A stretch of 64,000 bases of DNA from Alphaproteobacteria bacterium (GTDB lineage: Bacteria; Pseudomonadota; Alphaproteobacteria; RF32; CAG-239), in assembly GCA_045597005.1 (NCBI GenBank), contig JAZODJ010000009.1:6348-70347 (forward strand), given 5' to 3'. How positions within the stretch are numbered: position 1 is the first letter of the stretch; each line of letters begins with the position of its first letter. Positions 48,938 to 52,293 of the stretch are shown piece by piece. The position numbers were made by a program, and so were the translations under genes. The notes beneath the pieces were generated by a model. That model saw only the letters and a list, made by a program, of their open reading frames with translations, had not been told where the DNA came from and did not search any database.

Positions 48938-48969
48938 ATCAATCTCCTTAATCAAAAACTGTCCCTATA

Positions 48970-48985
48970 TTAACACAATTTTAAC
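48970..48985. promoter_or_regulatory. Consensus CtrA-binding box
   Basis: TTAA-cacaatt-TTAAC (TTAA-N7-TTAAC), about 33 bp upstream of ATG 48937; ctrA present in window. Confidence 0.5.
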
Positions 48986-49082
48986 CTTTTTGCAAGCCCC
49001 TTAATATTCCGCAACTATCCTATTGACTCTCCTGTTTTATTGTATTAAATTCAAAGGCAAATTTTATAAAAAAGGTTTTTAT

Positions 49083-49130
49083 ATGTACGATTTTTGCATC
49101 ATATCAATCATTTCTCGAATTATCCCCTAG
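49083..49130 (+). promoter_or_regulatory. Ile-rich leader peptide / putative ileS attenuator (MYDFCIISIISRIIP)
   Basis: 6 of 15 codons are Ile, in three doublets; stop in loop of atcccc/ggggat hairpin; atatgtac (49081-88) complementary to gtacatat (49147-54); 76 nt before ileS. Confidence 0.7.
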
Positions 49131-49206
49131 GGGGATTTGGTTTGTTGTACATATCAATTTAGTTTTTTGCTTAAATCAATCAATTTAACATTTTAGGATA
49201 TAAAAA

Positions 49207-52200
49207 ATGGCTCATTATGCAGATGTAAAGGCAAAGCCTGACTTTGTCGCACTGGAAAAAGAAGTATTAAAATTTTGGGAAGAAAATAAAACATTTGAAA
49301 AATCGGTTCAAAACCGTGATGGCGCAGCTGAGTTTGTATTTTATGACGGCCCTCCGTTTGCTAACGGTACGCCACACTACGGACATATTATGGTATCATA
49401 TGTCAAAGACGTTGTCGCTCGTTTTCAAACTATGAACGGCAAAAAGGTTGAACGCCGTTTGGGGTGGGACTGTCACGGACTTCCTGCCGAAATGTCTGCT
49501 GAAAAACAGCTCGGTGTTTCCGGCCGCAAACAAATTGAGGAATATGGTATCGAAAAGTTCAACAACTTTTGTCGTTCCGATGTTTTGAAATATTCTAATA
49601 TTTGGGTTGATACATTTAAGCGCATTGGCCGTTGGGTTGATTTTAATCACGATTACAAGACTATGGACTTATCGTTTATGGAAAGCGTGATTAACAACTT
49701 CAAACAACTTTGGGATAAAGGTCTGGTTTATGAGGACTATCGTGTATTACCATATTCTTGGGCAGCTGAAACACCGCTTTCAAACTTTGAAGTAAACCAA
49801 GGGTATCAAGATAAAACCGACAATGCAATAACCGTTTTATTCAAACTTGAAAACGGAATGAAAATACTTGTCTGGACAACTACTCCGTGGACATTGCCGT
49901 CAAACCTTATGCTTGCCGTAGGTAACGATATTGACTATGTAGTTATGGAAGAGGACGGACAAAAATACATTCTTGGTCGCGCATTACTCGGACGCTACAA
50001 AAAACAGCTTGAAAATGCTGTCGAAGTAGGTTCAATGAAAGGTTCTGAACTTGTTGGTATGAGTTATGAGCCAATGTTTCCATACTTTAAACACTTGAAG
50101 GAAAAAGGCTGTTTCAAAGTATTATCAGGCGAATTTGTCTCAACCGAAGATGGTACCGGTGTTGTACATATTGCCCCCGGTTTCGGTCAAGACGACTTTG
50201 ATGTCTGCCGTGCTTGCAATCCTAATTTTCCGGTTGTTTGTCCTGTTGACGAAGCCGGTAAATTTACTTCAGAAGTTAAAGATTACGAAGGCAAACAGGT
50301 TTTTGAGACCAACGAACCGATTATGCAATGGCTCAAAGAAAATGGTTTATTGGTTAAAAAAGAACAATATACTCACTCTTATCCGTTCTGTTGGCGTACC
50401 GATACCCCGCTTATTTACAAAGCAATGTCATCTTGGTTTGTCCGTGTAACCGATTTCAGAGATGATATGGTTAAAAACAATCAAGAAATAAATTGGGTTC
50501 CGGATCATATCAAAGACGGCCGTTTTGGCAAATGGCTGGAAGGCGCACGTGATTGGTCAATTTCCCGCAATCGTTTTTGGGGTACTCCAATTCCGGTATG
50601 GAAATCTGACAATCCGGCATTCCCTAGAGTAGATGTATTTGGCTCTGTGGTTGAAATTAAGGAAAAAACCGGTTTTGATGTAGTTGACTTGCACAAACCT
50701 TATATTGACGATGTGGTATACCCCAATCCGGATGACCCGTCAGGCAAAACAATGATGCGCCGTGTCGGTGATGTATTTGACTGTTGGTTCGAATCCGGTT
50801 CAATGCCGTATGCTCAAGTACATTATCCGTTTGAAAACAAAGAATGGTTTGAAAATCATTTTCCGGCAGATTTTATTGTTGAAGCTATGGACCAAACTCG
50901 CGGTTGGTTTTATACATTAACCGTGTTGTCAACAGCACTTCACAATCGTCCGGCGTTCAAAAATTGTATTTGTACCGGTTTGTTGATGGCCGAAGGCGGT
51001 CAAAAGCTATCCAAACGCCTCAAAAACTATCCTGATCCTAACGAAGTTTTAGATACCATAGGTTCTGATGCTTTGCGTTGGTTCTTGGTGTCATCGCCGG
51101 TATTAAAAGGCGGTAACTTAGCCGTAGACAAAGAAGGCAAAGAGATTGCCAAAGCTGCTCGCGAGGCTTTAATTCCGTTGTGGAATGCTTTTTACTTCTT
51201 TACACTTTATGCCAATGCCGAAAACTATCAAGCCAAAGAGGTATATTCTTCAACCGAGGCTATGGACAACTATATCTTGTCAAAACTCAAAAAGTTGTCG
51301 GAAATAGTCCAAAAAGGCATTAATACTTATGATGTTGCGGTTGCTTGCAACGAAATATCAGGTTTTATTGAGGTATTAAACAACTGGTATATTCGCCGCA
51401 CACGTGATCGTTTCTGGGAAGGTGACACAAAAGCATTTGATGTTCTTTATACCGTGCTTGTCAATTTAAGCAAAGTTGCCGCACCATTATTGCCGTTTGT
51501 TTCTGAATATATATTCAAAACATTAACCGGCAAAGAATCCGTACATCTGGAAGACTATCCAAATCTTTCGGCAATCCAATTTGATGCTTCATTGGTTGAT
51601 GATATGGATTTCTTGCAAGATTTATGTTCTGCCGGCAAATTTATTCGTGAAGAAAAGAACTTGCGTAATCGTTTGCCATTGAGTTCATTAACTGTTGTCG
51701 GTCATGAATTACCAACCGCATATAGCGAAATTATCAAAGATGAATTAAACGTCAAAGAAGTCAAGTTTGACAACAATCTGAGTGCTTATGCCGACAAAAA
51801 GATTTATCTTTACACACCATTGTTAGGCAAAGCCTTAGGTAAAGATATGGGAGCAGTAATGGCAGCTTACAAACAAGGGCAATGGGAACTCAATAATGAT
51901 GGCACATTGTCAATCGGTGGACAAAAACTTACGACAGATTTGTTTGAAGTTCGTCTTGATATGAAAGAAGGTGTTGCCGGTCGTGCCTTTGCCGAAAACA
52001 AAGCTTTGGTAACATTAGATACTGTTGTTACCGATGAACTGAAACGTGAGGGAATGGCTCGTGACTTTGTCCGTCTTGTCCAAACATTACGTAAAGATAA
52101 AGACTTTAACGTTTCAGACAGAATAGAGCTTTATTATTCGACATCGGATGCTGAACTTGCCAAAGCACTAAGCGAAAACGAGGCCTACATAGCTGAACAG

Positions 52201-52293
52201 GTTTTGGCTGTAAAAGTGGATAATACGTGTTCCGGTGGCGTAAATGCTGATATTGAAGGTGCCGATATCCGTTATGATGCCAAAGTAGCTTAA
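49207..52293 (+). CDS. ileS: Isoleucyl-tRNA synthetase, type 2 (archaeal/eukaryotic-like)
   Basis: DGPPFANGTPHYGH, WTTTPWTLPSN, RDWSISRNRFWG, DQTRGWF, KLSKRLKNYPDP, long C-terminal extension. Confidence 0.96.
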   Translation: MAHYADVKAKPDFVALEKEVLKFWEENKTFEKSVQNRDGAAEFVFYDGPPFANGTPHYGHIMVSYVKDVVARFQTMNGKKVERRLGWDCHGLPAEMSAEKQLGVSGRKQIEEYGIEKFNNFCRSDVLKYSNIWVDTFKRIGRWVDFNHDYKTMDLSFMESVINNFKQLWDKGLVYEDYRVLPYSWAAETPLSNFEVNQGYQDKTDNAITVLFKLENGMKILVWTTTPWTLPSNLMLAVGNDIDYVVMEEDGQKYILGRALLGRYKKQLENAVEVGSMKGSELVGMSYEPMFPYFKHLKEKGCFKVLSGEFVSTEDGTGVVHIAPGFGQDDFDVCRACNPNFPVVCPVDEAGKFTSEVKDYEGKQVFETNEPIMQWLKENGLLVKKEQYTHSYPFCWRTDTPLIYKAMSSWFVRVTDFRDDMVKNNQEINWVPDHIKDGRFGKWLEGARDWSISRNRFWGTPIPVWKSDNPAFPRVDVFGSVVEIKEKTGFDVVDLHKPYIDDVVYPNPDDPSGKTMMRRVGDVFDCWFESGSMPYAQVHYPFENKEWFENHFPADFIVEAMDQTRGWFYTLTVLSTALHNRPAFKNCICTGLLMAEGGQKLSKRLKNYPDPNEVLDTIGSDALRWFLVSSPVLKGGNLAVDKEGKEIAKAAREALIPLWNAFYFFTLYANAENYQAKEVYSSTEAMDNYILSKLKKLSEIVQKGINTYDVAVACNEISGFIEVLNNWYIRRTRDRFWEGDTKAFDVLYTVLVNLSKVAAPLLPFVSEYIFKTLTGKESVHLEDYPNLSAIQFDASLVDDMDFLQDLCSAGKFIREEKNLRNRLPLSSLTVVGHELPTAYSEIIKDELNVKEVKFDNNLSAYADKKIYLYTPLLGKALGKDMGAVMAAYKQGQWELNNDGTLSIGGQKLTTDLFEVRLDMKEGVAGRAFAENKALVTLDTVVTDELKREGMARDFVRLVQTLRKDKDFNVSDRIELYYSTSDAELAKALSENEAYIAEQVLAVKVDNTCSGGVNADIEGADIRYDAKVA

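Follow-up and report, generated by a model that had tools for sequence, protein, structure and literature searches.

How the isoleucyl-tRNA synthetase (IleRS) gene, ileS, is controlled in Alphaproteobacteria is the question raised by a 64,000-nucleotide (nt) stretch of DNA from an Alphaproteobacteria bacterium (GenBank assembly GCA_045597005.1, contig JAZODJ010000009.1, positions 6,348 to 70,347). In this stretch, referred to below as the window and numbered from its first letter, ileS is preceded by a short upstream open reading frame (uORF) that is rich in isoleucine codons. Control of aminoacyl-tRNA synthetase (aaRS) genes is well understood in Firmicutes, through T-boxes, and for a few genes of Escherichia coli, but far less so in Alphaproteobacteria, for which this leader would represent a family-wide case of ileS control. 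The comparative evidence presented here suggests, with a probability of roughly 85%, that the leader is a sensor of Ile-tRNA acting in cis on ileS, and thus supports the feedback from Ile-tRNA charging that the original prediction proposed. The leader probably works as a non-classical leader-peptide attenuator in which a translating ribosome competes with a clamp formed by the RNA itself.

The uORF occupies positions 49083 to 49130 of the plus strand (ATG TAC GAT TTT TGC ATC ATA TCA ATC ATT TCT CGA ATT ATC CCC TAG), encodes the peptide MYDFCIISIISRIIP, and ends 76 nt before ileS. The original prediction was right to place an Ile-rich frame in front of ileS and to count six Ile codons among its 15, arranged as three doublets (49098-103, 49107-112, and 49119-124), but its start codon lies at 49083 and not at 49081. 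The last doublet is followed by a proline codon (CCC, 49125-27) and the stop codon TAG (49128-30), and a Shine-Dalgarno (SD)-like AAGG (49072 to 49075, plus strand) is located 7 nt 5' of the ATG. At the proteome-wide Ile frequency of 7.4%, the probability of at least six Ile in 14 codons is 3e-4. The frame uses both ATA, the codon of the minor tRNA-Ile2, and ATT/ATC, those of tRNA-Ile1. The description of ATA as rare did not hold, since it accounts for 33% of the Ile codons in the long open reading frames (ORFs) of the window; the rare codons there are ATC (14% of Ile codons) and CCC.

The strongest evidence for a regulatory role comes from related genomes. An unbiased set of 80 loci was fetched by IleRS similarity alone; these belong to metagenome-assembled genomes (MAGs) of uncultured gut and rumen Alphaproteobacteria, with names that include "Azospirillum sp.", "Ca. 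Scatocola", and UMGS149. The leader device is present in 66 of the 80 loci, essentially those with at least 78% IleRS identity, and ends 71 to 107 nt before ileS. All 66 loci that have the hairpin described below also carry the uORF. A motif scan and a second IleRS search brought the collection to 81 distinct leaders in total; because the added loci were partly selected by the motif, unbiased statements rest on the first 80. In each of the 81 leaders there is an ATG with an SD-like signal, and the frame has 13 to 16 codons and ends in Ile-Ile-Pro-stop. An ATG-started frame of 12 to 16 codons that terminates at the hairpin stop is thus found in 81/81 leaders, compared with 2.8/81 after shuffling. 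Pairing of the region from -18 to -3 with the anti-SD averages -2.9 kcal/mol across these leaders, versus -0.4 in control windows.

The encoded peptides diverge (MQINIINHIPFIIIP, MLKILIHIRTIIIP, MRNINIISVIFRIIP, MNRRIFISIITIP, and others, next to that of the window), and what is retained despite this drift is the Ile content, at three to seven of the 13 to 16 codons. Counted from the stop, positions -6, -7, and -10 show synonymous exchange among ATT, ATC, and ATA. AT bias had been named as the alternative explanation of Ile richness, and conservation of the uORF upstream of ileS as the check; the frame has been kept as described above, and among the interior codons (the uORF minus Met1 and the last three codons) 29% are Ile in frame, versus 11.6% and 7.8% in the other two frames and 7.4% in the proteome. 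ATA makes up 45% of the Ile codons in the leaders, compared with the 33% of the long ORFs. The remaining residues are chiefly F, S, Y, N, H, and R, encoded by G-poor, often C-ending codons, and C-ending codons are enriched in the uORF (38% vs 25%). The last four codons are invariably ATT ATC CCY TAR, and the stop is TAG or TAA but never TGA. Together these patterns indicate that the uORF is a coding element selected for Ile codons in frame.

The association with ileS appears to be exclusive. The core motif occurs once in the window, and all core-motif matches of the clade with sufficient downstream sequence are upstream of ileS. A wider regulon was considered and dismissed, as the motif precedes no other gene of the clade and matches elsewhere are due to chance or unrelated. 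An Ile-biased small ORF at 20545-20574 of the window was likewise dismissed because it lies inside a gene on the opposite strand.

The ribosome-free leader is predicted to adopt a single clamp fold of two nested helices. In the outer helix, P1, the 5' arm (ATATGTAC, 49081 to 49088) contains the uORF start codon and is the exact complement of the 3' arm (GTACATAT, 49147 to 49154), which equals the (G)CACATA box of the relatives. The inner helix, P2 (ATCCCC-TAG-GGGGAT, 49122 to 49136), was flagged by a terminator scan; its arms (49122-27 and 49131-36) enclose a loop (49128-30) that is the uORF stop codon. The nucleotides left between the two helices (49089 to 49121), which correspond to uORF codons 3 to 13, form a single-stranded bulge that is Ile-rich, C-rich, and G-poor. 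All of these elements are on the plus strand.

P1 is supported by covariation. The duplex energy of the start region is -9.5 kcal/mol with its own downstream segment and -6.1 with the segments of other species (z = -11.7; none of 5000 permutations, and none of 10000 in a first run, did as well). Codons 2 and 3 of the uORF co-vary with the downstream box, and the variants include ATGTGC/GCACAT, ATGTAC/GTACAT, ATGCCC/GGGCAT, GATGC/GCATC, GATGA/TCATC, ATGACGT/ACGTC, and ATG..CCTT/AAGGCAT. In an alignment of the more frequent of the two leader layouts (class A, below), 91.7% of P1 cells are paired compared with 47% to 63% in slid registers, with compensatory changes of GC to AU and CG to AU. The medians for P1 are 12 pairs and -11 kcal/mol; the AUG lies within the helix in 71 of the 81 leaders, the initiation region is overlapped in every one, and the 3' segment is situated 16 to 25 nt past the uORF stop. 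The pairing between the start region and the downstream box that the original prediction pointed out is therefore a real helix.

The sequence of P2 is invariant across the clade except that CCC is accompanied by GGGG and CCT by GGG, with the loop growing from 3 to 4 nt. As the pairing is kept while the spacing of the arms shifts, P2 is more likely to be an RNA hairpin than a DNA operator with fixed half-site spacing; such an operator was also rejected because the CCT-type leaders (ATCCC-N4-GGGAT) are spaced differently and are not palindromic. The stop codon does lie in the hairpin loop, as originally described, but the U-rich stretch said to follow it is, in the window, merely an interrupted U-rich run (TTGGTTTGTT).

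Five other segment pairs were examined in the same manner (start region with uORF interior; interior with the sequence after P2; interior with the spacer before ileS; P2 3' arm plus box with the spacer plus the ileS ribosome-binding site; and 5' untranslated region with the sequence after P2), and in all five the own-species pairing was weaker than the cross-species pairing (z +2.6 to +5.5). Since P1 alone covaries, there is one fold, no antiterminator, and no sequestration of the ileS ribosome-binding site. The search for alternative structures that the original prediction recommended thus yielded none, and no 2:3 versus 3:4 arrangement was found among these pairs. For the leader against the ileS initiation region, matched pairing (-5.6 kcal/mol) was not stronger than mismatched pairing (-6.75), and this region is predicted to be 0.61 unpaired; translational attenuation of the erm/cat type, in which leader pairing sequesters the ribosome-binding site of the gene, is accordingly not indicated by the covariation test or by the predicted pairing. 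RNAalifold on MAFFT alignments recovered only the core of P2, as the P1 3' arm does not keep its place from one species to the next; for this reason alignment-free duplex permutations and a hand-specified structure were used. A T-box was not expected from inspection, and an Rfam cmscan of positions 48000-50000 (E<=10) returned no T-box, its best matches being unrelated and far below gathering scores.

Two repeats overlap these elements. A 9-nt direct repeat, CATATCAAT, is present in the window at 49100-49108, within the uORF, and at 49150-49158, in the region of the P1 3' arm, and many relatives repeat TTTTACATA once in the uORF and again after the T-run. Pairing of the start region with the internal copy of CATATCAAT was unsupported by the permutation test.

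The dimensions of the bulge suggest how the clamp could sense translation. Its length has a median of 30 nt (10th to 90th percentile, 27 to 35), which is about one ribosome footprint, its predicted unpaired probability is 0.72, and its C/G ratio is 2.3. YC dinucleotides reach a density of 0.17 in the uORF interior versus 0.08 in the background. Downstream of P2, a T-run begins after 4 to 9 nt and ends after 8 to 14 nt in nearly all leaders, in two layouts. In 47 of the 81 leaders (class A), P2 is followed at once by the P1 3' arm and then by T5 to T7, a run that also pairs with the A-rich ribosome-binding region, so that the complete structure looks like an intrinsic terminator whose 5' strand bulges out by 30 nt (one such leader reads GGGATTGGGCATTTTTTT); an ACATA box is retained after the T-run, outside P1. 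In the other 34 (class B, to which the window belongs), a P2 of 5 to 6 bp is followed by a gap of 2 to 5 nt, the U-rich run, and only then the P1 3' arm, with nothing consistently U-rich after P1 in these leaders. In the window, the U-rich tract (TTGGTTTGTTG, 49137 to 49147, plus strand) accordingly lies between P2 and the P1 3' arm.

In the mechanism that we propose, the promoter at 49023 would give rise to a leader RNA whose first feature is the Ile-rich 15-codon ORF. A ribosome stalled at any of the Ile codons would cover the P1 5' arm, the P2 5' arm, or the gap between them and keep the clamp open; because the bulge is one footprint long, the clamp could not close during a shortage of Ile-tRNA, and ileS would be expressed. 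The open clamp is taken to be the ON state because the codons are cognate to the gene. With plentiful Ile-tRNA, the first ribosome would clear the uORF and P1 would close over the start codon, barring the entry of further ribosomes and making this a one-shot, co-transcriptional measurement. The bare, closed leader would then lower ileS expression. The OFF step that we favor is the loading of Rho on the bare C-rich, G-poor leader and spacer, with premature termination once the polymerase is past the hairpin. The role of the U-run after P2/P1 would be that of a pause site and, in class A, also that of a default intrinsic terminator for untranslated transcripts. The main alternative for this step is cleavage and decay of the closed leader at the exposed AU-rich bulge; the sequence AUUAUU resembles RNase E sites.

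The favored OFF step is based on composition. Rho loading is preferred because the spacer is G-poor and the uORF interior is C-rich, YC-rich, and unstructured, comparable to tnaC and speFL. The spacer (49155 to 49193, plus strand) is unstructured as well as G-poor; across 82 leaders its C/G ratio is 2.86 (C>G in 73/82), compared with 0.91 for 176 further upstream regions taken from these genomes, and it contains no SD-like sequence. Predicted unpaired probabilities in the region of the uORF interior and spacer are 0.6 to 0.7. On these grounds Rho is put forward tentatively as the effector, while decay is a distinctly less probable one.

The spacer also holds a recurrent motif, AATCAATCAAT (49173-49186 in the window). 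This motif, or a single AATCAAT, recurs 25 to 35 nt before the ileS start in most species, whereas the remaining spacer is unalignable; it may serve as a translational enhancer, as a site for Rho or an RNase, or for the binding of a protein.

Among other explanations, the one that survives best is an intrinsic attenuator of more classical style, in which P1, P2, and the U-run form a Rho-independent terminator that a stalled ribosome blocks directly, with neither Rho nor decay involved. The class A leaders resemble strong terminators whose 5' strand carries a bulge (as in GGGATTGGGCAT with T7 behind it), P2 of the window is picked up by the terminator scan, and the uORF motif ahead of cysS has been read in this manner by Brewer et al. 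(PMC8632094). However, the 34 class B leaders have the U-run before the P1 3' arm and lack a consistent U-rich sequence behind P1, which leaves P2 alone, with 5 to 6 bp and 2 to 5 nt from the U-run, to act as the terminator. There is also a kinetic objection. A ribosome covers approximately -14 to +15 nt around its P site, and expressome structures put the minimum spacing between polymerase and P site at about 25 to 34 nt. By these figures termination would depend on ribosome loading only and not on the Ile codons. The distance from the uORF stop to the end of the U-run is only about 13 to 20 nt, so that a ribosome cannot finish the uORF before the polymerase passes; classical logic, in which release of the ribosome permits termination, is thereby ruled out for a polymerase just past the leader. 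On these predicted kinetics, a stalled ribosome thus cannot act simply by masking a terminator, and this includes the window, whose U-run is flanked by P2 and the P1 3' arm. We regard this explanation as possible but rather unlikely.

A coupling sensor resembling that of pyrBI, with the opposite sign, does somewhat worse. Here P2 and the U-run would constitute a pause site or weak terminator, melted only when a ribosome follows closely; plentiful Ile-tRNA would lead to read-through, starvation to uncoupling and termination, and ileS would follow the Ile supply. The geometry fits, since unwinding P2 requires decoding of the last three Ile codons, the U-run ends 8 to 14 nt after P2 at a distance typical of hairpin-dependent pauses, and a starved ribosome would stall first at codons 5 to 7 and leave P2 free. 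As in this proposal, the leader ORFs of pyrBI and pyrE overlap the hairpin, a translating ribosome occludes it directly, and an antiterminator is unneeded, but those leaders sense polymerase speed (the UTP level) and are on when coupling is close, whereas the codons of the ileS leader point to ribosome speed at Ile. Such a device would mean positive feedback on an essential enzyme, which is unprecedented among aaRS leaders, and ribosomes stalled at the invariant Ile codons -3 and -2 would themselves open P2. Further, in class A the P1 3' arm puts 5 to 9 nt between P2 and the U-run, and by its geometry any ribosome on the uORF would block the composite hairpin whatever the Ile level. We therefore consider this reading improbable. 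The geometries of class A and class B together imply that the Ile-dependent step probably takes place after the polymerase has moved on, as in the clamp mechanism with a late OFF step.

Several observations weigh against that mechanism in turn. Its weakest link is the last step, in which a bare closed leader is supposed to lower ileS expression. The short distance between uORF stop and U-run leaves little room for a decision at the polymerase, and in class B plentiful Ile would allow a ribosome close behind the polymerase to melt P2, so that the sign would be the opposite one. The sequence ATT ATC CCY TAR GGGRAT is conserved beyond what the hairpin needs, as compensated changes would be tolerated there. 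The C>G skew of the spacer may also stem from avoidance of structure or of SD-like sequence. Finally, one 189-nt metatranscriptome contig of a related strain spans 49078-49266 and runs through into ileS, from which it follows that at least some transcripts read through. The RNA data consisted of four bovine metatranscriptome runs, with this single low-depth contig, and otherwise of thin bovine and sheep contigs of unusable depth; a search of RNA runs with a rumen relative found no better ones.

A nascent-peptide arrest sensor of the TnaC or Erm type, in which Ile-Ile-Pro-stop would stall on a small molecule (free isoleucine or an antibiotic) rather than report tRNA charging, is suggested by the invariant I-I-P at the C-terminus before TAG or TAA; termination at Pro-stop is known to be slow, and TnaC has this ending, too (PMC8429421). 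Arrest peptides, though, need fixed residues in the exit tunnel, whereas upstream of the I-I-P the leader peptides are kept in Ile content only and otherwise vary freely, the fixed ATC CCY codons are explained by pairing in P2, and the synonymous turnover together with Ile enrichment at variable positions indicates that decoding and not peptide sequence is under selection. This makes arrest very improbable. A programmed +1 frameshift at CCC-TAG was rejected, being impossible in the 60% of leaders that have CCT. Hardly credible is the absence of any sensor (a 5' stabilizer, a constitutive terminator, or a repressor-bound DNA palindrome), for which one can cite the perfect DNA palindrome ATCCCCTAGGGGAT in the window, the genomic GC content of 35%, and the fixation of the last two Ile codons at the nucleotide level, but which leaves unexplained that Ile codons are 2.5 to 4 times commoner in frame than out, that ATG, SD, and a frame of conserved length recur in every leader, and that P1 covaries at the RNA level.

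Leader-peptide control is known for other genes. Like the ileS leader, trpL, hisL, ilvL, and pheL are short leader ORFs with their own ribosome-binding site and codons for the cognate amino acid, at which stalled ribosomes signal the charging state of the tRNA; pheL, too, is 15 codons long, with Phe-Pro-stop at its end. Those leaders comprise four segments, with a 2:3 antiterminator that competes with a 3:4 terminator, and their stop codon is about 70 nt from the U-run. By contrast, the nested helices of the ileS leader enclose the uORF, with the start codon in P1, the stop codon in the loop of P2, and the U-run 15 to 20 nt from the stop, so that the departure from classical geometry noted by the original prediction is real. 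A precedent for an aaRS gene is pheM-pheST, which is cited as a case of leader-peptide control in a source on T-boxes (PMC1262725). In E. coli, pheM is likewise a short ORF with its own ribosome-binding site and cognate codons ahead of an aaRS gene, where stalling reports charging. The T-boxes of ileS, found in Firmicutes and in a translational form in Actinobacteria (PMC1262725), regulate the same gene in response to the same signal (uncharged versus charged tRNA-Ile), but they bind the tRNA directly and do without a leader peptide, and the ileS leader has no T-box match.

Within Alphaproteobacteria, two cases are closer. Brewer et al. (2021; PMC8632094) described a motif, uORFC-8-2, before cysS in Rhodobacterales and predicted it to be a ribosome-mediated attenuator. 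It shares with the ileS leader an alphaproteobacterial aaRS gene, cognate codons in the uORF, stems, and a terminal U-run, but its uORF is longer, with only two regulatory Cys codons (positions 14-15), which are inside the first of two sequential stems; it was described as an intrinsic terminator, and no outer helix that sequesters the start codon was reported. In Caulobacter crescentus, the ribosome profiling of Schrader et al. (2014; PMC4117421) gave rise to an annotated "ileS leader CDS" (CCNA_03934), which served there solely as a negative control and was published with neither sequence analysis nor mechanism. It resembles the uORF of the window in being a small ORF, in this case a translated one, directly upstream of an alphaproteobacterial ileS; the Caulobacter ileS adjoins lspA, encodes 969 aa, and looks like another IleRS type than that of the window. 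The original prediction knew of no such leader described for alphaproteobacterial ileS, but the element has some precedent in this class. In full-text searches of the literature, neither an Ile-codon leader for ileS nor the nested architecture turned up. Precedent is thus limited to the unstudied Caulobacter leader CDS and the predicted cysS uORF, and the ileS leader is a variant of leader-peptide control.

For the OFF step, the closest parallels are Rho-dependent leader-peptide attenuators. In tnaC and speFL, Rho acts on the bare leader unless a ribosome is stalled there (PMC12360218). More generally, in tnaC-tnaA, speFL-speF, and mgtL-mgtA the stalled ribosome keeps Rho off a bare C-rich leader, and an untranslated spacer precedes the gene. 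Unstructured, C-rich, and G-poor RNA at or after the leader ORF, the hallmark of this type, is seen in the composition of the uORF interior and spacer of the ileS leader. The signals differ: tnaC, speFL, and mgtL sense a small molecule via a conserved arrest peptide, or Pro-tRNA via alternative structures, whereas the ileS leader, which has a single fold, would respond to Ile-tRNA at many codons, with Rho suggested by composition only.

Put together, these features may represent a distinct design, which we advance with considerable reservation. The uORF would lie inside two nested helices exactly one footprint apart, the outer helix would shut the start codon so that only the first ribosome measures, no antiterminator would be needed, and the decision would be made by Rho or an RNase, after the polymerase has passed, on the bare C-rich bulge and spacer unless a stalled ribosome covers them. 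If true, this would be the first amino-acid-starvation leader that works via Rho rather than an alternative RNA fold, and the first described mechanism of ileS control in Proteobacteria. It would further allow predictions about the response of these common gut and rumen bacteria to IleRS inhibitors such as mupirocin. A sensor with one fold would show that ribosome-mediated attenuation is possible in a more compact form than the textbook model, and the geometry of the leader raises the question of whether its signal is transmitted by intrinsic termination, Rho, or decay.

The leader is located in an intergenic region (48956-49206) between divergent genes, the left neighbor being on the minus strand. 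The gene ileS itself (49207 to 52293, plus strand; SD TAGGA at 49194-98, plus strand) encodes a class I synthetase of 1028 aa with the Pfam domains tRNA-synt_1, Anticodon_1, and, at the C-terminus, DUF5915, and from its length and C-terminus the product looks like a "type 2" IleRS. The promoter-like TTGACT at 49023 that the original prediction had noticed was also found by a consensus scan and is conserved in relatives. The sigma-70-like promoter of the putative leader-ileS transcript (49023 to 49051, plus strand) consists of this -35 element, a 17-nt spacer, and a -10 element TAAATT (49046), and would place the transcription start near 49058. Relatives keep the promoter block TTGACTC...TTGTATTAAATT at equal distance; further upstream the DNA is unrelated across species, while the promoter and leader are retained.

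Two minor features of the region deserve mention. In class B leaders, the P1 3' arm reads TTG CAC/TAC ATA, 9 to 11 nt after the SD-like GGGGA of P2 (49145-49162 in the window). A second small ORF starting from this TTG (TTG TAC ATA TCA ATT TAG in the window) was rejected, as it is confined to class B and class A has no usable start. Elsewhere in the window, a strong canonical intrinsic terminator (GCGGTGG...CCACCGC, with T-runs on both sides) is present at 48297-48354 between convergent genes. P2 of the ileS leader is much weaker than this sample of the ordinary terminators of the genome.

Beyond the clade, the sister clades at 73% to 77% and at about 60% IleRS identity have no Ile leader. An Ile-rich uORF in a distant relative (L080/L200; MIIIDNITI...) was attributed to chance, since it falls on a conserved promoter and the relatives of that genome lack it. 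Most members of the 73% to 77% sister clade (L058-L062, L065, L066, and L073) keep a block, AAAATGTTTAAAAATTCAGTTAAGATTCATTGCC-TTTTTT, about 110 to 60 nt before ileS, which can be read as a 12-codon ORF (MFKNSVKIHCLF) and is followed by a promoter-like CTTGAT...TAAAGT. An Acetobacter sp. CAG:977-like clade (L201-L211 and L263) keeps CGTCAAGGATT(C/G)T(A/G)TTGAC about 95 to 60 nt before ileS, overlapping the promoter -35 element; this block is a possible transcription-factor site and suggests a different control of ileS in that lineage. Three Clostridia MAGs (Stercoripulliclostridium-like; L141:4740-5420, L168:5630-6310, and L099:1-450) contain a promoter-driven 37-aa ORF that ends in ...IISIIISIIIIP-TAG, followed by GGGGGAT. 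This ORF shares the ATTATCCCCTAGGGGG core with the ileS leaders and is followed by a separate terminator and the gene for an XRE-cupin regulator; it may be a small hydrophobic protein matched by chance or an unrelated Ile-rich leader.

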